UHGV virus genome: UHGV-0118820
Direction: 5' to 3' (one strand)
DNA from: a virus
Length of the DNA: 11,711 bases
Shown: positions 230 through 11,496 of the stretch, piece after piece
How the letters are laid out: every line of letters starts with the position of its first letter
Numbering within the stretch: position 1 is the stretch's first letter
The notes under the pieces: model-generated
Seen by the model: the letters and a program-made list of their open reading frames with translations, nothing else
Told to the model about the DNA's origin: nothing
Databases searched by the model: none
Made by a program: the position numbers and the translations under genes

Positions 230-3200
230 ATGACTCATCAAACACACACCATTGCTGAATCCAATAACTTTATCGTTCTTGATAAGTACATCAAAGCTGA
301 GCCAACAGGCGACAGCTACCAGAGCGAATCGGACCTGGAACGAGAACTGATTCAGGACCTGCGGAATCAGGGCTATGAATTTATATCCGTAAAATCACAG
401 TCGGCGATGCTGGCCAATGTTCGGGAACAGCTTCAGAACCTCAATGGTGTGGTGTTTAATGACAGCGAGTGGCGGCGTTTCACGGAGCAGTATCTGGATA
501 ACCCGAGCGATGGCATTCTGGATAAGACCCGTAAAATCCATATCGACTATATTTGCGACTTTATTTTTGATGACGAGCGTCTTGAGAACATCTATTTGAT
601 AGATAAAAAGAATCTCATGCGCAATAAGGTGCAGATTATCCAGCAGTTTGAACAGACGGGTTCTCATGCTAACCGTTATGACGTCACGATCCTGGTTAAT
701 GGCTTACCGCTGGTGCAAATCGAACTGAAAAAACGCGGCGTGGCGATTCGTGAGGCTTTCAACCAGATACATCGTTACAGTAAAGAGAGTTTTAACAGCG
801 AAAATTCCCTGTTTAAGTATCTGCAACTGTTTGTCATTTCTAACGGCACCGATACCCGTTATTTTGCCAACACGACAAAGCGCGATAAAAACAGTTTTGA
901 CTTCACCATGAATTGGGCGAAATCAGACAACACGCTGATTAAAGACCTCAAAGATTTTACCGCTACCTTTTTCCAGAAACATACTCTGCTTAATGTTCTG
1001 GTGAACTACAGCGTTTTTGACAGCAGTCAGACGCTACTGGTGATGCGACCGTACCAGATTGCTGCCACCGAGCGCATTCTGTGGAAAATTAAGAGTTCCT
1101 TTACAGCGAAGAACTGGTCAAAACCGGAAAGCGGTGGGTATATCTGGCACACTACCGGTTCTGGTAAAACCCTCACCAGCTTTAAAGCCGCGCGTCTGGC
1201 AACAGAGCTGGACTTTATTGATAAAGTCTTCTTCGTGGTCGACAGGAAAGACCTCGATTACCAGACCATGAAGGAATATCAGCGTTTTTCGCCAGACAGC
1301 GTCAACGGCTCGGAAAATACCGCAGGCCTTAAACGAAATCTGGATAAGGACGATAACAAAATTATCGTCACTACTATTCAGAAACTCAATAACCTGATGA
1401 AAGCAGAAAGCGACCTGCCTGTATACAATCAGCAAGTGGTGTTTATATTTGATGAATGCCACCGCAGCCAGTTTGGAGAAGCGCAGAAAAACCTGAAGAA
1501 GAAATTCAAACGCTATTATCAGTTTGGTTTTACCGGTACCCCTATTTTCCCGGAAAACGCCTTAGGCTCAGAAACGACCGCCAGCGTATTTGGTCGTGAA
1601 TTGCATTCGTATGTAATTACCGATGCGATTCGTGATGAAAAAGTGCTCAAATTCAAGGTGGACTACAACGATGTGCGGCCACAGTTTAAGTCTTTAGAGA
1701 CAGAAACTGACGAGAAAAAACTAAGTGCGGCTGAAAATCAGCAGGCGTTTCTTCATCCCATGCGTATTCAGGAAATCACGCAATATATTCTGAATAATTT
1801 CCGCCAGAAAACTCACCGTACCTTCCCTGGCTCAAAAGGTTTTAATGCTATGTTGGCAGTGAGCAGCGTGGATGCCGCGAAAGCCTATTACGCGACGTTT
1901 AAACGGTTACAAGAGGAAGCAGCTAATAAATCGGCTACCTATAAACCGCTGCGTGTTGCGACAATCTTCTCCTTTGCTGCCAATGAAGAACAAAATGCCA
2001 TTGGTGAAATTTCCGATGAAACTTTTGATACCAGCGCAATGGACAGCAGTGCTAAAGAGTTTCTTGACGCTGCAATTCGTGAGTATAACAGCTATTTTAA
2101 AACTAACTTCAGCACCGACAGTAACGGTTTTCAGAACTACTATCGTGATTTAGCCCAACGGGTTAAAAATCAGGATATCGATCTGTTAATTGTCGTGGGG
2201 ATGTTTTTAACTGGCTTCGATGCTCCAACATTGAACACGCTATTCGTCGATAAAAACTTGCGTTTTCACGGCCTGATGCAGGCATTTTCCCGCACCAACC
2301 GTATTTATGATGCAACTAAAACCTTCGGTAATATCGTCACTTTCCGGGATCTGGAACGCTCAACTATTGATGCCATAACGCTGTTTGGTGACAAAAACAC
2401 CAAAAATGTGGTTTTAGAAAAGAGTTATGCAGAGTATATGGAAGGCTTTACTGATGCTGCCACTGGTGAAGCTAAGCGCGGCTTTATGGCAGTAGTTTCA
2501 GAACTGGAACAACGGTTCCCTGACCCTGCCAGTATTGAAAGTGAAAAAGAGAAGAAAGACTTCGTTAAACTGTTTGGTGAATACCTGCGTGCCGAGAACA
2601 TCCTGCAAAACTATGATGAATTTGCCACGCTGAAAGCCCTGCAACAAATCGATCTTAGCGATCCTGTTGCGGTAGAAAAATTCAAAGCAGAACATTATGT
2701 GGATGATGAAAAGCTCGCTGAATTGCAAACAATTCGTCTCCCTGCTGATCGCAAGATTCAGGATTATCGTTCTGCCTATAACGATATTCGCGACTGGCAG
2801 CGCCGTGAGAAAGAAGCTGAGAAAAAAGAGAAATCAACCACTGACTGGGATGACGTAGTTTTTGAGGTCGATTTGCTGAAGTCTCAGGAAATAAACCTGG
2901 ATTATATCCTTGGACTGATTTTCGAACACAACAGACAAAATAAAGGCAAGGGCGAAATGATCGAAGAGGTCAAACGCTTAATTCGTTCAAGCCTAGGGAA
3001 CCGTGCTAAAGAGGGCCTGGTGGTCGATTTTATTCAGCAAACGAACCTGGATGATTTACCAGACAAAGCCAGTATCATTGAGGCATTCTTTACGTTTGCT
3101 CAACGCGAACAGCAACGTGAAGCAGAAGCATTGATAAAAGAAGAAAATCTCAATGAAGATGCAGCAAAACGCTATATTCGCACGTCTTTAAAACGCGAAT

Positions 3201-3346
3201 ACGCCACCGAAAATGGCACAGAATTAAACGAAACATTACCAAAACTTAGTCCGTTAAATCCGCAATATAAAACGAAAAAACAGGCAGTTTTCCAGAAAAT
3301 CGTCTCGTTTATTGAGAAGTTTAAAGACGTAGGCGGAAAAATATAG
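230..3346 (+). CDS. hsdR: Type I restriction enzyme R subunit (HsdR), intact, 1038 aa; EcoR124-like (type IC) by recollection
   Basis: Single uninterrupted 3117-nt ORF with SD AAGGA. Contains helicase motif I (WHTTGSGKT), DEAD-box-like motif II (FIFDECH), an N-terminal PD-(D/E)xK nuclease region (VQIELKK) and motif VI (QAFSRTNR). Length and N-terminal sequence match my recollection of EcoR124I HsdR. Confidence 0.95.
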
Positions 3347-3362
3347 CCCAATTCGTGTTTTT

Positions 3363-3391
3363 CTTGCGGGTTCTTAATTAAACCCGCAAGA
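3363..3391. other. Perfect 10-bp inverted repeat (CTTGCGGGTT / AACCCGCAAG) with 8-nt loop, 17 nt downstream of hsdR stop
   Basis: Read directly from sequence. A T-run precedes the stem on the plus strand and no U-run follows it on either strand, so it is not a canonical intrinsic terminator. Confidence 0.5.
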
Positions 3392-3429
3392 GACCGTGGG
3401 GTTCCAAATGGCTAATATACTCCCCTTAC

Positions 3430-3513
3430 CTATGCGCGACAATGCTGCCAAAAGTGATAGAGAACAGCCAGAAATAGATCGCGGCCATAATGATTTTGAA
3501 TGCCGTGTTCATA
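3430..3513 (-). CDS. Candidate small hydrophobic peptide (27 aa, MNTAFKIIMAADLFLAVLYHFWQHCRA)
   Basis: ATG at 3513-3511 preceded by AGGAG (3526-3522) with 8-nt spacer; TAG stop at 3432-3430. Below the size cutoff of the ORF track. Predicted single membrane-spanning segment. No homolog recalled. Confidence 0.25.
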   Translation of the reverse strand, partial: YEHGIQNHYGRDLFLAVLYHFWQHCRA

Positions 3514-3540
3514 TTTTCAGCTCCTGTGATTGATTGGATA

Positions 3541-3570
3541 CATGCCGCGCCTTGCGGCATGTTTTTATTT
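3541..3570 (+). terminator. Rho-independent terminator (plus strand), probable hsdR transcript end
   Basis: GC-rich hairpin CATGCCGC-gcctt-GCGGCATG (3541-3561) followed by TTTTTATTTT. Confidence 0.6.
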
Positions 3571-3581
3571 TCCCTTTCTCT

Positions 3582-3621
3582 GTTTTAAAAATCAATATTT
3601 ATTAGAGCAATTATTGCTGAT
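3582..3621. repeat. Copy A of ~40-bp imperfect direct repeat (GTTTTAAAAAT-N6-TTATTAGAGCAAT-TATTGCTGAT), overlapping the stop codon of the HAD gene
   Basis: Matches 5723..5763 by eye: identical 11-mer and identical 13-mer, similar 3' tail. The 13-mer core also occurs inverted at 5687..5699. Confidence 0.55.
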
Positions 3622-4117
3622 GAAGAAGCGCGTTTTCATACTCCCTGACCATTAACGTAAGCACGCCGTGCCTCCTGAAAACACGCGCCACTTCAATCTT
3701 ATCTTCCAGCGCGAACGCAATTTTACTTAGACCAATTTTCTTAAGGAGATCAATCTTTGCTGGACCGTCATTTCTGTCATCGGTGGCGGGACGCATAGAT
3801 AGCAAAGGCTCTGCCCCATTTGTTACGTGCTTACGCAACCAGGCTCGTGTTTTATCCCTGGCTATCTCACAGCGCCCGGTTACAAACCAGAGCGTGTAAA
3901 TGCTGGACAACTGGCGCACCATATCAATAACTGGAGTGATGGGAGCATCAGTGTCACAGGCAAGGTTAAACTCGTTCCAGTGCTCTGTTAATGCACCGTT
4001 GCCAGGCGGTGGAAGTAAATGCAGCCTGTCTTCCGTTGCCTCTGATATCGTCCCATCAATATCTACTATGACGATATACGGACGTTCCTGGTGTGCGTGT
4101 TTATTGAAAATACTCAA
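3611..4117 (-). CDS. HAD-superfamily phosphatase, resembling the 3'-phosphatase domain of T4 polynucleotide kinase-phosphatase (stand-alone, no kinase domain)
   Basis: 168-aa ORF with TTG start preceded by GAGGAGG. HAD motif I IVDIDGT near the N-terminus; C-terminal LEDKIEVARVFRRHGV resembles my recollection of the T4 Pnkp tail IDDRTQVVEMWRRIGV. No P-loop. Confidence 0.65.
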   Translation of the reverse strand: MSIFNKHAHQERPYIVIVDIDGTISEATEDRLHLLPPPGNGALTEHWNEFNLACDTDAPITPVIDMVRQLSSIYTLWFVTGRCEIARDKTRAWLRKHVTNGAEPLLSMRPATDDRNDGPAKIDLLKKIGLSKIAFALEDKIEVARVFRRHGVLTLMVREYENALLHQQ

Positions 4118-4136
4118 ATGCCCTCCTCATTGGACG

Positions 4137-4170
4137 AAAAAAATGCTGGTGGGAGCACTCCACCAGCATT
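4137..4170 (-). terminator. Rho-independent terminator for the 420-aa gene (minus strand), directly upstream of the HAD gene RBS
   Basis: 11-bp stem AATGCTGGTGG / CCACCAGCATT (4142-4152 / 4160-4170) with 7-nt loop. On the minus strand it is followed by a U-run (plus-strand A-run ending at 4143). Confidence 0.55.
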
Positions 4171-4189
4171 AAAAGTGACACTGTAACTA

Positions 4190-5452
4190 TCAGCGAACGT
4201 AAATAGTGCCGCCGTTCTCTTTTTCCCATGCATCGCTACGTGCATAGCAAACATCGAGAAGTCTTCTTGCCGCAGTTTCCTCTAAACCCAATTCGACAAC
4301 CAACTGCTCATGACGGCGGGTAACCACATCAAACAGGGTATGCAGCCCTTTAGTTGCCAGATCATCAATGAATTCCGGTTCGAACGGCAGCTCTGCATCT
4401 GCCAACATAACCTCTTGCGCCCACTCAACTCGACGGACCAGTTCCGGGCGGCGGCTTTCCATCTCTTTACAGATCAATTCATGGAAGAACTCTACCCAAC
4501 CTTCCGGCTGGAACTCGCGGAAAATTGCCAACGGCTGGAAGTTTGGCATCAACCATTCGTTGATTCGGATATCAATGGCATAGCCCATGTCGCAGCAGAA
4601 CTGATAAGCAAAGTCCAGCTTAGAAACGATATAAGGACGCTCGTTATTGAACTCTTTAGGCGATGAGATCCCATAAGCCAGGAGGCGCGGGAAGAAGGAG
4701 ATTTGCCCTAACGTCGGATGAAGTTTGCTTGCAGGGAAACGTCGCTCAGTAATGCCATACATTTCCTTCTTGAGCGTCGCAAATTTGGCATTCTCATTAA
4801 CCAGCGCGGTAACCTCTGCTTTTTTATTAGCAAATGCCACGCGCGCCTCGCTTGCATCTTTAATAGTTTTTTTGAGCTGTTGGTTAAGGTCGGCGACCTG
4901 CTTACGCAGTTCCTGTCGCTCGCTTTTAGCTTTGTTATAGCGTTTCTCAAGGTTAAAAGGATCAAGTTTCATGATCTCTTTATATTGAGATTTTAGCGTT
5001 GAAATCTGTGAGTTCCGCAGTTCAACCATCGCGGTCATTTCATTGAGTTTTGTTTCCAGCTCAATGCTTATACGTTCGGCATTATCAGCACGCTGGTTGG
5101 CGTCATGCGTCGCATCGTCGATCGCGTCCTGTTGCTGGCGTTTCAAATGTTCAATTTGCAGCTGAAGCTCTTCAATTTCTTTACCCTTCAGACCGAGATC
5201 CAACTGCATATTTTCAGCTGCATCTACCAGGGAGTTATGGCTATCAGCTTCTGCGTTATAAACATCAATAAGCTGTGCGTGAAGCATCTCCGCTGACTGA
5301 ACCGCATTATCAAAAAAACGTGCTGTGAGGTCATCACAACTAACGCGGCGTTGCGCGGCCCGGATGTTCTGGATAATGGCCGGGATACCGGCATTCAGGA
5401 CGTCAGGGATAGATACATTTTCGATTGATTGGTTTTGTGCTGAAGTGCTCAT
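4190..5452 (-). CDS. Hypothetical protein, 420 aa: N-terminal ~230 aa predicted coiled coil, C-terminal ~190 aa globular domain of unknown family
   Basis: Long uninterrupted ORF. Start ATG 5452-5450 is 1 nt downstream of the stop of the 72-aa ORF. No P-loop or nuclease motif seen. Heptad-like Q/E/K/L-rich N-terminal half. Confidence 0.8.
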   Translation of the reverse strand: MSTSAQNQSIENVSIPDVLNAGIPAIIQNIRAAQRRVSCDDLTARFFDNAVQSAEMLHAQLIDVYNAEADSHNSLVDAAENMQLDLGLKGKEIEELQLQIEHLKRQQQDAIDDATHDANQRADNAERISIELETKLNEMTAMVELRNSQISTLKSQYKEIMKLDPFNLEKRYNKAKSERQELRKQVADLNQQLKKTIKDASEARVAFANKKAEVTALVNENAKFATLKKEMYGITERRFPASKLHPTLGQISFFPRLLAYGISSPKEFNNERPYIVSKLDFAYQFCCDMGYAIDIRINEWLMPNFQPLAIFREFQPEGWVEFFHELICKEMESRRPELVRRVEWAQEVMLADAELPFEPEFIDDLATKGLHTLFDVVTRRHEQLVVELGLEETAARRLLDVCYARSDAWEKENGGTIYVR

Positions 5453-5453
5453 T

Positions 5454-5672
5454 TCAAAGTTCCGTATTAGCTTGTGCTTCGGTCATTTTTCCTAAGTATG
5501 AAGGAGGAAGGACTACGCAATTTGTATCCAGTCCCTCACCTATGGCAGCCTGTAAAATTCTGGCTAAGGTGAGTCTCTTGTTGCGATACCTGGTGATGAC
5601 ATGCCTGATACCGCCGGTCGGCGTAACAAAGGCGATCAGCCAGTAGTGATATTTCCGTCGGAATGGCCACAT
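5454..5672 (-). CDS. Hypothetical small protein (72 aa), translationally coupled to the 420-aa gene
   Basis: ATG 5672-5670 preceded by AAGGTG. Stop TGA 5456-5454, then 1 nt, then the ATG of the downstream gene. No family recognised. Confidence 0.5.
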   Translation of the reverse strand: MWPFRRKYHYWLIAFVTPTGGIRHVITRYRNKRLTLARILQAAIGEGLDTNCVVLPPSYLGKMTEAQANTEL

Positions 5673-5686
5673 AGTGCACCTTATGG

Positions 5687-5752
5687 ATTGCTCTAATAAA
5701 AAACGTGATGAGTGTACATCACGTTTTAAAAATATGGAATTATTAGAGCAAT
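5687..5752. repeat. Perfect 13-bp inverted repeat (ATTGCTCTAATAA at 5687-5699 / TTATTAGAGCAAT at 5740-5752) bracketing a terminator hairpin
   Basis: Read directly from sequence. The arms are the same 13-mer that forms the core of the direct repeat at 3599-3611. Confidence 0.6.
5698..5727 (-). terminator. Bidirectional Rho-independent terminator ending the minus-strand operon 8768..5754
   Basis: Stem CGTGATG / CATCACG (5704-5710 / 5717-5723) with 6-nt loop, flanked by A6 on the left and T4 on the right. Reads as hairpin plus U6 on the minus strand. Confidence 0.55.
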
Positions 5753-5763
5753 ATTATTCTGAT
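5723..5763. repeat. Copy B of ~40-bp imperfect direct repeat, overlapping the stop codon of the glycosyltransferase-like gene
   Basis: See copy A (3582..3621). Both copies lie directly 3' of the stop codon of a minus-strand gene. Confidence 0.55.
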
Positions 5764-6455
5764 TCTTGCTCAAAAAACGAGCTGGTAAGGGGAAGCCAAT
5801 CCTCTGACACTTCGCGAGGCCGCGGTTTGCCGTGGAAAAAGATTATTCGGCAGTCTTTTGGTAATGCCCCATTCCCCCTGGAGTAACGCGCGCTCGCATA
5901 TTTTGAACCAGGTTCCACAACATCGGCCTTGTAACTTACAAACCATCCTGGATACAGATCCTGAAATGCTGGTGTATCATCGCCCATAACCTTTCGTAAG
6001 AACCCCTGGTCACCCCAGCACTCAGTAGTGACACAACGAGAAATCCAACCTTCCGGATCTTGCCAGAATGAACTCCAGATATGCGCTTTAACACTATTTG
6101 GTATCCACAGGGCACCGCTGCCACGATATTGTGGATGGTAAAAATCCCTAAGCATGGTGAAGCTGGTTGGTGGATGCTCTAGGATTGGGCGTATATCACC
6201 GGCAATAACCGTGTCCAAATCCAGATAGAACAGATCATCGGTTATATCCGGTCGGAACAACTCGATTTTCGCCCACCAGCCACGGCACTTTTGCCACTGG
6301 TTGATCAATGGGACAACTTTGACGCCAGGTACATGTAAACGCTTCAGGTCTGTCAGGCAAATAATTTCATAGCCTTTTGGCAGTTGATTAACCAGCCACT
6401 GCACATCGGAAGCGTTATAGTCACCACCAGAGCGAAAAACTAAAGCAATCTTCAT
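5754..6455 (-). CDS. Putative GT-A fold glycosyltransferase (DxD-type), 233 aa
   Basis: [13 protein letters not shown] matches the DxD nucleotide-sugar/metal motif context. C-terminal FHGKPRP resembles the H-x-G-x-KPW motif of GT8/GT32-like enzymes. ATG overlaps the stop of the upstream phosphatase ORF as ATGA. Confidence 0.55.
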
Positions 6456-7107
6456 GCTGCACCATCACCTTTCACTTTCATCAATGTCAGGTTTCCGCAA
6501 AATACGGCACCAGTGTCGATATACTGCTGATTCCAGAATGTCTTCGGGCTTTTCACCGGAGTGTGACCAAAGATAAAACGATCTGCGCCCGAAATTTCGC
6601 CACCAATATCATCCATCGAATCACTGATACGCTCGCGCGCCCAGACAACGTTGAAAAGCGGCACCTCCTTACCGAATTGGTATTCATTATCCGGATAGTC
6701 GGCATGGGCTATAACGATAGTTTCTTGCCCGGTGTTCAACTCAATGATATAGGGCAGACGTCTTACCAGCTCCACCAGCGCCCTGGCTAATATTTCCTGA
6801 TCAGTGTCCAGCATGAAGAACCATTGTCCGCCATTCATTAGCCAGTTATTCACGTTATCATCAGCCGCTCATGGTTCCCCATCACTGCCCTGAACCAGGG
6901 CATCTGCAATAGTTCCAGACATTCGACATTTTCAGTACCGCGATCGATAAGGTCGCCGACCGATATCAGTAAATCCTGCGCCGGGTCAAAATCCACACGA
7001 TGGAGTTCGGACATCAGTCTGGTGTAGCAACCATGCAGATCACCAACAACCCAGACATTCCTGTATTTGGTACCGTCGATACGGTGATAAATTGTGGGTG
7101 CCATCAT
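6452..7107 (-). pseudogene. Lambda-type Ser/Thr protein phosphatase (calcineurin-like metallophosphoesterase), interrupted by a frameshift
   Basis: Two adjacent ORFs (7107..6850 and 6853..6452) in different frames. Together they carry GDLHGC, GDLIDRG, GNHE, then WLMNGG and [13 protein letters not shown], closely matching my recollection of lambda phosphatase. The frame breaks right after GNHERLMIT, where about 7 residues expected before NVNNW are missing. Confidence 0.75.
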
Positions 7108-7730
7108 GTATTCTTCAGCCATTCTTTAAGAGTCATCTGCGGAATACCTCCCATTTTCCCGCATGAAACAACGTCAATCCGTTCACGCGCAGACTGGAAT
7201 AACAAAGGCAGGTGACTTAGATTTTTTGGCGTGCCGCCGGAGTGAACGCGTGGTTCTTGTGTAGCGTCAACGCCCACCAGGGCGACATGTTTGAATCCGA
7301 TATGGAAAGCCAGGTTCAGAGCGCCATATGCACTATTGCCGCTGGCAATTTCATTCTCATCTTCGCAAAGTCCGAAATGTGCGGACCAGCGCCACGCCCA
7401 CCACTCGGGAGAATTCGTATTTTTTGGCTCCATGCCACGTTCAGCCACACGACGGAAGCACAGAACGCCGTCTCTGACTTCACGTTCTTTAACATCGGGT
7501 AGTGCCATGCAATAACAAACACCACGGCGACGGCGGCCACGACCAACGCGCCGCATATTGTCTGGCGATGGATCAAGGGTGAAAAAATAAGAAGCGCGGT
7601 TCAGCCAGTCGATGGCCCCATTGACCGCTATAATCGGCACTCCGCGCGGCGCAACAAAGTTTGCGGCGCTTGGGCCACTGCCGACGATAATAACGCGATC
7701 ACTGCCTCTAAATTTATTCTTGGGAAACAT
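7104..7730 (-). CDS. GT42 sialyltransferase-like / DUF115 (MptE-like) Rossmann-fold protein, paralog B (208 aa)
   Basis: N-terminal [10 protein letters not shown] and IIAVNG, later [12 protein letters not shown] and VALVGVD. This pattern resembles Cst-II-type sialyltransferases (IIAGNGPSL, FRCNQ) from memory. Stop overlaps the phosphatase start as ATGA. Start preceded by AGGAG. Confidence 0.55.
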
Positions 7731-8257
7731 TGAATTGCACTGCTCCTACTTGCATTCAAAATATGTAAATCTGCGTGTTTTTTGCGGGTATCCAGGAACT
7801 GCTGTTGCCATTTTGAAATAGACACCTGCGTTGGATTCCGTAGGGCTTGAGGGTGCGCGCCATGCCAATGAAGGCCGTTTTGCAGAGAACAGTCATAGCC
7901 GACTAATACCACTACTTCAGCCCCTGATTCAGCAGCCAGACTGATAGCCTGCGCGCCGCTATTTACCCCTTCCGCCGGTCCACAATATCGCCTGTACTCC
8001 AACGAAAATGATTTCGCCGCCGCCAGGTTGGCTGTCACTTTGCGGAATCTCCCTCCCGGTATGGTGGATCCGTATTGCTTCCACCATGACAAATCACCGG
8101 CGTATAAGGCATAAATGTCATCGAACATCTGCCAGGAATTGTTAACCGCGATGATTGAACAGCCAGTTTTTTCTATAGCAGCACAGTCCTCACGAGTGAG
8201 TGACGGACCGCTACCGACACAAAAAACAGTCCTAGTCGCCCTGGGTGGTATGTTCAT
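7628..8257 (-). CDS. GT42 sialyltransferase-like / DUF115 (MptE-like) Rossmann-fold protein, paralog A (start placed at MNIPP)
   Basis: VFCVGSGPSL, IIAVNNS, NSGAQAISLA and VVVLVGYD parallel the motifs of paralog B. The ORF could begin 11 codons earlier at 8290. Its 3' end overlaps the start of paralog B by about 100 nt. Confidence 0.55.
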   Translation of the reverse strand: MNIPPRATRTVFCVGSGPSLTREDCAAIEKTGCSIIAVNNSWQMFDDIYALYAGDLSWWKQYGSTIPGGRFRKVTANLAAAKSFSLEYRRYCGPAEGVNSGAQAISLAAESGAEVVVLVGYDCSLQNGLHWHGAHPQALRNPTQVSISKWQQQFLDTRKKHADLHILNASRSSAIQCFPRINLEAVIALLSSAVAQAPQTLLRRAECRL

Positions 8258-8429
8258 TCTCAGCTGCAAATTCAGCCTCCAGGCGAGCATTCATTTCAGC
8301 GATTACCGGGTCCACTACAGCATCTGCTTCCTGTTCATTACGCGGCATGATCGATGCCAGCGATTCATAATTAGCCTTGAATGACACGATTATTCTCCCG
8401 ATGTTAATGTGCGCTATATCAAAGAGCAC
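8232..8429 (-). CDS. Possible small acidic protein (at most 65 aa; GTG-initiated in the ORF track)
   Basis: ORF-track entry only. No convincing RBS. Overlaps the start of paralog A. AT-rich upstream region. Confidence 0.2.
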   Translation of the reverse strand: MLFDIAHINIGRIIVSFKANYESLASIMPRNEQEADAVVDPVIAEMNARLEAEFAAENEHTTQGD

Positions 8430-8453
8430 ATATGCACTAATTAATTTATTATT

Positions 8454-8768
8454 TTAAGCAGCATACAACCACTTATCGCCGTTCAATACATGCTCAATAG
8501 CCTCACCCTTTTTAAGGCTTATGTATTCCAGGATGGCGGTAATCGCTTGTTCTGCACCATACGCAAGAACGACGTAGTAACCTTCCTCTCTAAGCCTGCG
8601 CATCCAGGCGATCTGCTCTTTCGTCGGGGCTTTACCATTTGGTTCTTTAAGCTCAATTCGCATGCCGTGATAAATACCGCATGCTTTATCGAGACTCATG
8701 TCCGGATAACCTTTTTTCTGCCCTTCAGCCTTCATTTTCCCGGCGGTTGCTTTTGAACGTTTCCCTCT
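8454..8768 (-). pseudogene. VRR-NUC domain (PD-(D/E)xK) nuclease gene, 5' end truncated by IS insertion
   Basis: GYPDMSL and IELKEPNGKAPTKEQIAWMRRLREEGYYVV match the VRR-NUC core. The N-terminal part of the domain is absent. The ORF-track N-terminus ([24 protein letters not shown], 8769-8840) is encoded by the IS inverted repeat, so it is a chimeric artefact. Confidence 0.7.
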
Positions 8769-8839
8769 GAAGTGGTTTACTGAATTTGGCCACCTGAACA
8801 GAGGTGATATGCTCACCTCAGAACAACACAGGTGCTCCA

Positions 8840-9102
8840 ATGAAAAAAAGAAATTTCAGCGCAGAGTTTAAACGCGAATCCGCTCAACTGGTTGTTGACC
8901 AGAACTACACGGTGGCAGATGCCGCCAAAGCTATGGATGTTGGCCTTTCCACAATGACAAGATGGGTCAAACAACTGCGTGATGAGCGTCAGGGCAAAAC
9001 ACCAAAAGCCTCTCCGATAACACCAGAACAAATCGAAATACGTGAGCTGAGGAAAAAGCTACAACGCATTGAAATGGAGAATGAAATATTAAAAAAGGCT
9101 AC
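8840..9102 (+). pseudogene. IS3-family OrfA (HTH transposase N-terminal protein), 3' end interrupted by IS30
   Basis: [16 protein letters not shown]...[12 protein letters not shown], then the reading frame runs into the IS30 terminal repeat. The ORF-track start at 8804 is an upstream extension; ATG at 8840 is the likely true start. Confidence 0.8.
9091..9097 (+). promoter_or_regulatory. A-AAA-AAG programmed -1 frameshift heptamer of the IS3-family element
   Basis: AAAAAAG in the X-XXY-YYZ register of the orfA frame (codons tta-aaa-aag). Known frameshift signal of IS911-type elements. IS30 is inserted 5 nt downstream. Confidence 0.6.
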
Positions 9103-10323
9103 TGTAGATTCAATCTGTCAATGCAACACCCCTTTCAATTATCTCTTTCGGTGTTTTGAACTTCAGTGTCTTTCTCGGTCTGTTGTTTAGCTGAGCAGCA
9201 ACCAGATCTAGTTCATGTTGAGTATATTGGGCAAGACATGTCTTTTTAGGAAAGTACTGCCGAATTAGCCCATTTGTGTTCTCATTTGTTCCCCGCTGCC
9301 AAGGACTCTGAGGATCGCAGAAGTAAACTTTAACGCCGGTGCTGACAGTAAATTCTAGATGTCTGGCCAGTTCCATTCCTCTGTCCCATGTCAGTGATTT
9401 TCTGAGTTCTGACGGTAAACTCAGGAATTTGTCGGTAAGAGCCTGATTTACTGAGACAGAATCTTTGCCCCTGAGTCTAAGGATGATCGTATAACGTGAT
9501 TTTCGGTCTACAAGTGTGGCTATATGAGAGTTTTTTGTACCTGAGACTAAATCGCCCTCCCAATGCCCCAGAGAGCGTCTGTTATCGATATTTCGGGAAC
9601 GTTCGTGAATTGGTGTTCCGTTCACTATGTTAATCGTACCTCTTTCGCCTTTGCGGGTATGACGCCTGCCATGGCGAAGGCTATGCGACCGTCGCAGATG
9701 CTGTATATTCAGGTGGTGTAGCGCTTCACGGCTACGAAAGTACAGCGTTTTATAAATTGTCTCAGGTGATATTCGCAGCGTTTTTTGACGTGGTTTTGTT
9801 CGCCTTAACCATCCTGATATTTGCTCTGGAGACCATTTCATCTCCAGCTTTTCCAGAACAAGCTTTCGCAATGGTAAATTTTGATCCAGTAAGCACGGTT
9901 TTGGCCTTTTCGCCATTCTGTTGGCTCGGTTATTAGCATCAACAGCTTTGTAATAGCGTCTGCCCCGATTACGCTGAACTTCACGTGAGATCGTCGAAGG
10001 ACTGCGATTCAGCGCAGTAGCTATCGCACGAATGCTCATTTTGGCTGACAAACCAGCTCGTATCTCCTCGCGCTCAGACAGTGTCAGGTGAGCTACAGCC
10101 CGCTTACGCTCATGGGGTTTTATGCCGCCAGTATCCCTTAACATAGTGAAGATCGTTCCGGGTTTTGAACCCAGGATATTCGCTATTTCACTGAAGCCTG
10201 TTCCGTTCTTCCATAGTTCAAAAACAGAGGCTTTTTCCTCTGCTGTAAATGTTCGTCTCATTCAAAAAACCTCCGCAACCCCATGTTTTCACATAACTGT
10301 TGCGTTGACCAATTGAATCTACA
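9103..10323 (-). mobile_element. IS30, complete (1221 bp) with 26-bp terminal inverted repeats
   Basis: Terminal repeats TGTAGATTCAATCTGTCAATGCAACA (9103-9128) and TGTTGCGTTGACCAATTGAATCTACA (10298-10323). Length and ends match my recollection of IS30. Confidence 0.9.
9110..10261 (-). CDS. insI: IS30 transposase (383 aa)
   Basis: Intact 383-aa ORF with an N-terminal HTH region and a DDE integrase core (HWEGDLV). Size is as expected for the IS30 transposase. Confidence 0.92.
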
Positions 10324-10325
10324 GC

Positions 10326-11211
10326 GGCGTACTTCGCAAAGCTGTCCGACTGAGGTACGCCTTTATCCGTGACAACTCCTGTTGCTGGCCTGTTCGCCTG
10401 CTCTGTCGGGTGCTGGATGTTCATCCCAGTGGTTTTTACGCCTGGCTTCAGCAGCCGCATTCACAACGCCATCAGGCAGACCTGAGACTGACAGGACAGA
10501 TTAAACAGTTCTGGCTGGAATCGGGATGCGTCTATGGTTATCGCAAAATCCATCTGGATCTGCGTGACAGCGGGCAACAGTGCGGAGTAAACAGAGTCTG
10601 GAGACTGATGAAACGTGTCGGAATAAAGGCTCAGGTCGGATACCGAAGCCCGCGGGCACGTAAAGGCGAGGCCAGTATCGTGTCGCCCAACAGGCTTCAG
10701 CGACAGTTCAATCCGGATGCTCCGGATGAGCGTTGGGTAACGGATATAACCTACATCAGGACCCACGAAGGCTGGCTGTATCTTGCCGTGGTTGTTGATC
10801 TGTTCTCACGCAAAATTATCGGCTGGTCCATGCAATCCCGGATGACAAAGGACATTGTCCTGAACGCACTGCTGATGGCTGTATGGCGGCGTAATCCCCA
10901 AAAACAGGTGCTGGTTCATTCGGATCAGGGCAGTCAATGAATGGCAGTCGTTCCTGAAATCACACGGCCTGGAGGGCAGCATGAGCCGTCGCGGTAACTG
11001 CCATGATAATGCGGTTGCAGAAAGCTTTTTCCAGTTGTTGAAACGCGAACGGATAAAGAAAAAGATCTACGGAACGCGGGAAGAAGCCCGCAGCGATATT
11101 TTTGATTACATCGAAATGTTTTATAACAGTAAGCGTCGGCATGGTTCCAGCGATCAGATGTCACCGACAGAATATGAAAACCAGTATTATCAACGGCTCG
11201 GAAGTGTCTAA
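10326..11211 (+). pseudogene. IS3-family OrfB (DDE transposase/integrase), frameshifted
   Basis: The frame is open from 10326 (…CRVLDVHPSGFYAW…) through WVTDITYI and LVHSDQGSQ to a stop at 10938-10940. The remaining C-terminus (SMSRRGNCHDNAVAESFF…) continues in another frame to TAA 11209-11211. A 1-nt-class indel lies near 10935-10945. Confidence 0.75.
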
Positions 11212-11496
11212 ATTATCCGTGGCGATTCATTGTTAACCAGCTAAGAAACTCAGCTTTCTGGTTCACCAGCTAAAACTGCGGTTCACGTTCCCTGATTCTT
11301 TGCTCGGGGAGGGGAGAGCAGTCCGAGTCACAGGCTGTTTCCTCCTCACCTTTTTCAACCAGGTCAACAACGGCTATTTTAGAGGATAATCACGTTGGGG
11401 GCGTTTGAACTCAGTCATCGTCACGTTCTCCGGATTTAAGTCAGGAACATGTCAACGATATTCAGGGCGGGTTACTTTCTTACTAAGTGAAAAATC

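Follow-up and report, generated by a model that had tools for sequence, protein, structure and literature searches.

The window analysed here, an 11,711-nucleotide stretch from the virus genome UHGV-0118820, carries on its minus strand (positions 5754-8290) the four consecutive genes pmgO, pmgP, ppp and pmgQ, which are 98% identical in nucleotide sequence to those of bacteriophage P1 and correspond to hdmB, hdmC, ppp and hdmD of phage P7. An initial annotation, made from the sequence alone, had described this run as a tightly packed operon in a combination that it did not recognise. The tight packing is present in the sequence, but the combination is the annotated pmgO-pmgP-ppp-pmgQ block of P1 and P7, an identification that we regard as virtually certain. 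A megablast search with positions 3400-8900 gives 97.7-98.4% identity at 97-100% coverage to P1, P7, RCS47, SJ46 and phi456. Genes, gene order and overlaps are those of P1 and P7, and the near-identity continues through the flanks in the order pmgM-pmgN-pmgO-pmgP-ppp-pmgQ-pmgR-pmgS-pap, together with the C1 operators (Table 1), which places the block in the P1/P7 (Punavirus) operon. At least 80% of the P1-like stretch is present in 545 of 5426 complete E. coli genomes, the best matches being plasmids with P1 c1, lpa, pdcB, doc/phd, repA and parAB. Relative to P1, the window has a 22-bp deletion in ppp, a pmgM gene truncated by an IS3-family element, and an hsd locus that replaces pmgT-humD downstream of pap. 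The carrier is a degenerate P1-derived E. coli plasmid.

The genes are joined by short overlaps. At the ATGA junction A7107-A7104, the TGA stops pmgP and the ATG is an in-frame methionine codon of ppp, for which the P1 annotation places the start 15 nt further upstream, at 7122. At the second ATGA, A6455-A6452, the stop of ppp overlaps the start of pmgQ. The overlap between pmgO and pmgP, also reported initially, spans 103 nt (7628-7730) and matches the P1 annotation.

The locus, its gene names and its predicted classes are already in public records and are ordinary for a P1-derived plasmid; RefSeq NC_005856 lists "alpha-2;3-sialyltransferase", "metallophosphoesterase" and "glycosyltransferase" for these genes. 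As a sequence feature, the block is of little weight: it is catalogued in P1, and P1-derived E. coli plasmids like its carrier number in the hundreds. The comparative evidence turns these P1 genes, labelled morphogenetic, into a defined three-enzyme cassette with fusions and methyltransferase partners.

Table 1. Features of the window by position, with strand, description and source of the assignment.
Feature	Position	Strand	Description	Basis
hsdR	230-3346	+	type I restriction subunit	
Minus-strand gene run	3611-8840	-		matches to P1-like phages
pap (P7 pap)	3611-4117	-		P1/P7 records
pmgS (P7 shtB)	4190-5452	-		P1/P7 records
pmgR (P7 shtA)	5454-5672	-		P1/P7 records
OpmgRb	5687-5703		C1 operator, just downstream of pmgQ	pattern search, P1 annotation
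OpmgRa	5736-5752		C1 operator, just downstream of pmgQ	pattern search, P1 annotation
pmgQ (P7 hdmD)	5754-6455	-	intact, 233 aa; GT8-fold, retaining-type glycosyltransferase with DxD (D79-L-D81-T)	
ppp	6452-7122	-	pseudogene of a lambda/NinI-type Mn-phosphoesterase; fragments 6850-7122 and 6452-6853	
pmgP (P7 hdmC)	7104-7730	-	intact, 208 aa; DUF115/MptE-like, GT42-like putative transferase	
pmgO (P7 hdmB)	7628-8290	-	intact, 220 aa; DUF115/GT42-like	phrog_4603, E 4e-74
pmgN (P7 hdmA)	8232-8387	-	51-aa open reading frame	P1 annotation transfer; phrog_2350
Oppp (Op83)	8431-8447	+	C1 operator upstream of pmgN-pmgQ	P1 annotation, pairwise alignment
pmgM remnant (P7 upf81.2)	8454-8767	-	C-terminal VRR-NUC part, P1 residues 90-192	Pfam VRR_NUC, E 9e-5
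IS3-family element	8768-11250		interrupted by IS30; orfA from ~8840, orfB pieces 10410-10940 and 10981-11211	
IS30	9110-10261	-	complete; transposase	

Folds of PmgO, PmgP and PmgQ

PmgQ is a GT8-like GT-A transferase with a DxD motif, in agreement with the initial annotation, which had called it a DxD glycosyltransferase of the GT-A type. The protein alone has no Pfam match. A profile of its family (41 database relatives) retrieves GT8 enzymes from the PDB, led by the Skp1 alpha-galactosyltransferase Gat1 (E 1.8e-7) and followed by GlyE and glycogenin, with the DxD motifs aligned. The AlphaFold model is confident, with a predicted local distance difference test (pLDDT) score of 94, and has a GT-A fold in which the DxD aligns to that of the GT8 enzymes. 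Identity to Gat1, GlyE, glycogenin and LgtC is just 13-18%, the P1 protein does not match the GT8 family PF01501, and the gathering score of that family is not reached, weak matches being found in 7 of 28 PmgQ relatives (best E 0.026). The family conserves WW.K, D-L-D-T, GDQ, SYK and FHGxPRP; apart from D-L-D-T, these invariant motifs are its own and distinguish it from the GT8 enzymes.

PmgO and PmgP had been described as paralogs. Their homology is upheld at the level of profiles, although the relationship is remote. BLASTP aligns the two proteins at E = 0.04 over 36 aa, and a profile-profile comparison of their families (hhalign) gives 97.7% probability and E = 2.4e-12 over 160 columns. The two are distant homologs. 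In sequence-profile searches of the PDB, the PmgP family alone (328 relatives) finds nothing and the PmgO family alone finds Cst-II at E ~0.3. The merged profile of both families reaches Cst-II at E 1.4e-4 and Cst-I at 4e-3, with MptE (E 0.68) and Maf near E = 1. This similarity to GT42 includes both nucleotide-binding motifs, represented in PmgO by GSGPSL and NSG..GYD. PF01973, the family of DUF115/MptE-like proteins and Maf, is matched by 38 of the 45 PmgO/PmgP members at E < 0.01, and its three-dimensional fold is shared. Two relatives, P0212 and P0259, pass its gathering score of 34.6 bits (44.6 and 44.1 bits), a score that PmgO (23.4 bits) and PmgP (21.0 bits) of the window do not reach. 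These searches bear out the GT42/DUF115-like class proposed initially, and PmgO and PmgP are divergent putative transferases of the DUF115/MptE-like/GT42 fold. Compared to Maf, they are minimal (~190-210 aa) and lack its flanking domains. Downstream of the G.D motif, H141 and H143 are invariant in PmgO and H173 in PmgP, as possible counterparts of His188 of Cst-II.

The sole Pfam family matched is named MptE-like, and matches to the PmgP model (pLDDT 94) include thiamin pyrophosphokinases (about 9). Alternatively, both proteins might act on a small molecule, as diphosphokinases of the MptE/thiamin-pyrophosphokinase kind or as nucleotide-dependent enzymes of another type, and PmgQ would then glycosylate the product. 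We consider this very improbable, since the sequence profile favours Cst-II over MptE by the E-values given above, since both nucleotide-binding motifs align to Cst-II, and since the fusions and neighbours described below, namely TylF and FkbM O-methyltransferases and further glycosyltransferases, are typical of glycan assembly. Membership in a defence or anti-defence system was also considered and was rejected in the absence of PADLOC matches, the models of that collection matching none of PmgO, PmgP, Ppp, PmgQ, PmgM, PmgR and Pap.

The transferase cassette and the phosphatase

The P1 block was compared with about 20 non-P1 loci carrying PmgO/P/Q-like genes, and a family census of 1.84 billion proteins yielded 649 PmgP-family representatives. 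In all of the non-P1 loci, the three transferase genes occur without the phosphatase and without VRR-NUC. The carriers are lambdoid, HK97-type, large lytic and jumbo phages, in which the usual order is O-P-Q with a variable slot between P and Q. In the lambdoid Citrobacter phage phiNP, O-P-Q lies between Rz and the terminase gene terS, and an Alloalcanivorax prophage has P-methyltransferase-Q-O between lysis genes and terminase. Six HK97-type prophages (from Ochrobactrum, Zhongshania, a Methylophilaceae metagenome-assembled genome, Microbulbifer, Pseudomonas and a metagenome) hold the cassette within the head/neck genes, where it follows the major capsid, connector or head-completion gene and abuts its neighbours without intergenic space. 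The Ochrobactrum copy has P-Q between connector and head-completion genes, and the Zhongshania copy runs from the major capsid gene through O-P-methyltransferase-Q to the connector. A Sinomicrobium (Bacteroidota) phage region has O-Q-P and then an FkbM methyltransferase, E. coli phage IME392 has O-P-GT-B transferase-Q, and the jumbo phage XacN1 has O-P followed by a TylF-type O-methyltransferase fused to a PmgQ domain.

The slot between P and Q, or its immediate flank, often holds a sugar-type O-methyltransferase or an extra GT-B transferase, methyltransferases being present in five loci. Single-chain fusions among the 649 representatives join O+P, P+Q, Q+P, Q+P+methyltransferase and methyltransferase+P, and large MptE-like/PmgQ-like fusions are found among predicted viral structures. 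In an all-versus-all comparison of the flanks of 18 loci, the shared genes are head-module genes, methyltransferases and a GT-B transferase only; a possible acceptor, in the form of a conserved partner without enzymatic function, was sought there and rejected. The natural fusions, together with synteny without Ppp in other phages, suggest that O, P and Q form one functional unit, which appears to be horizontally mobile, and the position between P and Q is a slot that gathers glycan-tailoring enzymes.

A GT-B protein (Glycos_transf_1) homologous to the slot protein of IME392 is encoded ~3 kb from the cassette in chromosomal prophage remnants of Serratia and Buttiauxella (GT-B protein loci: L005 12498-13526, L107 10515-11501 and L112 5602-6570), and may represent a fourth, optional transferase of this pathway. 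On the chromosome of Candidatus Pantoea floridensis, a lone PmgQ-like gene (49% identity) lies between lpdA and acnB (L007/L008 9001-9633); it has no phage genes nearby and is apparently domesticated or an orphan.

The assignment of ppp to the lambda-type phosphatases holds. The N-terminal fragment scores 48.6 bits against Pfam Metallophos and retains the GDLHG, GDLIDRG and GNHE motifs, and the intact ortholog matches phrog_246 (E 1.6e-112) and, in NCBIfam, PRK11439 (E 3.5e-83). The homology of Ppp to the lambda Ser/Thr phosphatase (NinI, lambda-PP) is close, with 64% identity according to the P1 annotation. In contrast to the lambda enzyme in the nin region, Ppp is embedded in a transferase cassette and is inactivated in this window, where the motifs, the C-terminal His motifs included, are present but the reading frame is split. 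The gene is broken, as the initial annotation had stated, not by a simple frameshift but more exactly by a 22-bp deletion between 6857 and 6856 in alignment with P1, P7 and plasmid pHFQ1, which produces a TGA (6852-6850); P1 and pHFQ1 both have an intact ortholog. Knockout of ppp has occurred at least twice independently, the second case being a TTA-to-TGA nonsense change in plasmid p07D18002 (L002 12053-12730), and both elements retain undamaged transferase genes on either side.

A hidden Markov model scan of the loci finds Ppp homologs restricted to the P1-like ones, where ppp overlaps both neighbours. All four genes and the upstream VRR-NUC could instead be one integrated pathway in which the phosphatase is obligatory, for example in dephosphorylating the acceptor or a sugar-phosphate intermediate. 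Those overlaps fit such a pathway, as does the retention of ppp at this position in both E. coli P1 and a P1-like plasmid of Pantoea (PmgP identity only 72%), in a slot that other phages use for glycan-tailoring enzymes. We nevertheless judge an integrated pathway improbable, since no non-P1 cassette has a Ppp, since ppp was lost independently here and in p07D18002 with O, P and Q intact, and since phage D6 carries a ppp copy (86% nucleotide identity) alone amid unrelated early genes. VRR-NUC likewise never accompanies the cassette elsewhere, none being found outside P1-like elements in the comparison of 18 flanks. The phosphatase and the nuclease, initially taken as parts of the module, thus prove to be scattered, non-syntenic genes, whereas O, P and Q are strongly syntenic. 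The four-gene combination is a P1 mosaic rather than a conserved pathway, and Ppp appears to be an independently mobile gene that took the slot between P and Q in the P1 lineage. It is very likely that O, P and Q constitute a glycan-building three-gene cassette with Ppp as a passenger.

The suggestion that the module is decaying applies to part of it. In a tblastn census of 87 P1-like loci, pmgP is intact in all 87, pmgO in 86, ppp in 84 and pmgQ in 80 (three of the failures being contig ends), and pmgM is broken in eight. The gene pmgN, a member of the P1 operon outside the conserved cassette, is intact in 86 of the 87. The transferase cassette is maintained in P1-like loci, in keeping with purifying selection; its three genes are undamaged in the window, as they are in almost all of these loci, and the damage in the lineage of the window is confined to ppp and pmgM. 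A scan of viral contigs with the PmgP alignment, in which 80 of 80 contigs were P1-like (99-100%), was used for this census and not for diversity.

Expression and proposed donors and acceptor

The label "putative morphogenetic function" dates from the P1 genome annotation (GenBank AF234172). CRISPR interference and deletion (PMC10695390) show that P1 needs none of the four genes to form plaques or grow lytically on K-12, and the label is therefore unsupported as an essential assembly role. In the P1 annotation, the block is controlled by C1 operators and lies downstream of a late promoter. A pattern search of the window for C1 operators gives three matches, against 0.07 expected by chance, all at P1 sites. 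The divergent Oppp is kept with one substitution relative to P1 in a pairwise alignment, and the OpmgRb/OpmgRa pair marks the border towards the next P1 operon, pmgR-pmgS. In the HK97-type prophages, the cassette genes directly adjoin structural genes or overlap them, so that a separate promoter would have no space. Given the C1 operators, the late promoter and the embedding in structural operons, expression in lytic growth only is most likely.

During lytic growth, the cassette would use nucleotide sugars of the host to build a short oligosaccharide, which some phages would O-methylate. Assembly of a short glycan is suggested by two GT42/Maf-like enzymes and one GT8 enzyme in company with frequent sugar O-methyltransferases, and these classes together agree with the glycosylation pathway supposed in the initial annotation. 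The donors would be of host origin because no nucleotide-sugar synthesis (sugar-activation) genes accompany the cassette. PmgQ would use a UDP-hexose, and PmgO and PmgP a CMP-activated ulosonic acid. In contrast to the hosts of GT42/Maf systems, K-12 lacks a nonulosonic-acid pathway, so that the donor for PmgO and PmgP would have to differ or be CMP-Kdo. As a speculation, CMP-Kdo would be the sole option in K-12, because no other CMP-activated ulosonic acid is known there and because every identified host is diderm.

The acceptor would be a virion structural protein of the capsid or neck, giving a non-essential glycan coat as in mycobacteriophages. The placement in head modules points to such an acceptor, as does the fact that the closest characterised structural relatives act on proteins, with Maf acting on flagellin, Gat1 on the Skp1 glycan, GlyE on PsrP and glycogenin on itself. 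We hold a virion acceptor to be plausible, at slightly less than an even chance. According to two reports, tandem transferases with an O-methyltransferase glycosylate the capsid and tail tube of mycobacteriophages and are dispensable for growth (PMC11600133, PMC11256854). The virion clusters of Che8 and cluster O (Freeman et al. 2023, as cited in both reports) resemble the present cassette in their tandem phage glycosyltransferases, frequent O-methyltransferase, dispensability for plaques and host donors. The support for a virion system here is contextual, from head-module placement and methyltransferase partners. The differences are that virion glycosylation is demonstrated there and is what we infer here, that the present hosts are Gram-negative, and that the enzyme set comprises two DUF115/GT42-like proteins and one GT8-like protein. 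As a whole, the explanation of the P1 block as a lytic-phase glycan-building cassette, probably glycosylating virion proteins, stands in our estimate at an even chance.

Several observations weigh against it. Portal and capsid proteins of the HK97-type carriers cluster by BLAST; these carriers are thus relatives of one another, and the six head-module contexts are not six independent events. Virion glycosylation of P1 and the other carriers is predicted from context, the paper on the P1 virion proteome mentions neither these genes nor glycans, and the window proteins themselves fall below the Pfam gathering scores. The element is also defective here: the insertion of the IS3-family element has cost it pmgL and the late promoter LPpmgL and, with further rearrangement and IS elements, the cassette may be a silent relic of no use to its carrier. 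Finally, two carriers, P1 and phiNP, adsorb to outer-core glucose of the host lipopolysaccharide (LPS), which is the receptor of P1. The phiNP receptor is GlcII of the LPS outer core (PMC6456863).

This last point favours the main rival, masking of the LPS core. The cassette would extend or cap the host LPS core in lytic growth, masking the receptor of its own phage and limiting superinfection or the loss of progeny on debris, with PmgQ as a GT8 enzyme of the LgtC/WaaO/WaaJ type and PmgO and PmgP as Cst-type lipooligosaccharide transferases. The nearest sequence relatives of PmgO and PmgP in the PDB are the lipooligosaccharide sialyltransferases Cst-II and Cst-I, LgtC is also a lipooligosaccharide enzyme, and the enterobacterial copies lie beside lysis genes, a classic site for accessory genes. 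Repression by C1 in lysogens and coupling to late or structural operons speak against an LPS target, because last-minute LPS would barely alter the surface. Moreover, strictly lytic and jumbo phages also carry the cassette, it is found within blocks of head genes too, and no membrane-association or export component accompanies it in the flank comparison. We regard LPS masking as unlikely, though clearly more probable than the other alternatives.

A further point against a virion target is that, in large lytic phages, the cassette adjoins ribonucleotide reductase and other nucleotide-metabolism genes and not structural genes. The distance is within a few kb in the Sinomicrobium contig (L109 8415-11095), XacN1 (L113 66-3650) and a metagenomic phage (L115 1-3146). 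Proximity to ribonucleotide reductase genes, found in three or four such phages, would suit glycosylation of phage DNA, a base hypermodification protecting from restriction. The cassette of the metagenomic phage also lies near Thy1-like and dNMP-kinase-like genes, and that of the window adjoins a type I restriction system. The hsd adjacency is, however, a secondary replacement of the P1 pmgT-humD genes. Known phage DNA glycosyltransferases are JGT/TarP-like GT-A or T4 BGT-like GT-B enzymes tied to genes forming 5hmC or 5hmU, and the papers checked name no Maf, DUF115 or GT8 enzymes. P1 DNA is not, to our knowledge, known to carry glycosylated bases. No hydroxymethyl-pyrimidine pathway lies beside the cassette in P1, phiNP or the HK97-type prophages, and by published criteria for DNA hypermodification (bioRxiv 2023.12.21.572611) there are no ThyS-like, 5mYOX or C5-methyltransferase neighbours in the window, P1, phiNP or the HK97-type loci. 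With precursor-base genes absent and the enzyme families unlike the known ones, DNA glycosylation was rejected as highly improbable.

Returning to glycosylation of virion proteins, its broadest form would make PmgO-PmgP-PmgQ a widespread, undescribed system of phages of Gram-negative hosts, P1 included, that puts a short glycan on capsid or neck proteins, made from universal host donors (a UDP-hexose and possibly CMP-Kdo). This generalisation is tentative and in our view rather doubtful. Within the library searched, no paper was found that treats pmgO, pmgP and pmgQ as a glycosylation unit or reports glycosylated virions of Gram-negative phages. Particle glycosylation, if real, would matter for the stability of phages and for how the immune system recognises therapeutic ones, as it does for mycobacteriophages; the slot between P and Q would be a hotspot for tailoring enzymes, and the P1 phosphatase would gain its first clear pathway context.

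Gene starts and neighbouring elements

The start given for pmgO in the initial annotation, 8257, is the second in-frame ATG of an annotated reading frame that opens at 8290. The real start may be at 8257 or just after, judging from homologs that begin near codon 12-25. Automatic annotation of pmgO is inconsistent: the P1 record has 220 aa, and the Prokaryotic Genome Annotation Pipeline gives either 166 aa, without the N-terminal GSGPSL motif, or no gene (L001 13251-13751; L002). A misspelt product name, "norphogenetic protein", has propagated across databases. The gene pmgP lies in the -1 frame relative to pmgO, and the heptamers T TTC CCA and A AAT TTA are found where the overlap begins. Together with natural fusions of PmgO to PmgP (e.g. 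P0212), this prompted the idea of a programmed -1 frameshift joining the two. This was rejected: the overlap varies from 4 to 133 nt elsewhere, and that of phiNP (94 nt) has no slippery heptamer. Such a frameshift seems unlikely on these comparisons.

On the other side of the block, P1 homology stops at 8767. The VRR-NUC gene upstream, truncated as initially described, is pmgM, cut at codon 90 by an IS3-family element that ends at ~8768 and whose insertion removed the N-terminus of pmgM along with pmgL and LPpmgL. The same IS3/pmgM junction is present in five other loci (pHFQ1, p07D18002 and three IMG/VR contigs), which indicates one plasmid lineage.

Between phd/doc and pap, a type I restriction-modification locus, hsdM-hsdS-hsdR (window 230-3422; L001/L002 2912-8947), replaces pmgT-humD of P1, and the window includes hsdR alone of its genes. 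In the P1 GenBank record, the DNA flanking the pmgT-humD spot is 96-98% identical to the flanks of the EcoDXXI and R124 hsd loci, and P1-like plasmids appear to exchange cargo repeatedly at this spot. For Pap, annotated as "P1 acid phosphatase", the match is to a 3'-phosphatase domain of the HAD type, that of polynucleotide kinase-phosphatase (PF25109, E 8e-12). The 420-aa PmgS is an SMC/Rad50-like coiled-coil protein with weak LmuB matches in PADLOC, and both pap and pmgS are non-essential in P1. Together, Pap, PmgS, PmgM (VRR-NUC) and Ppp make up a set of nucleic-acid-end or phosphoester enzymes.

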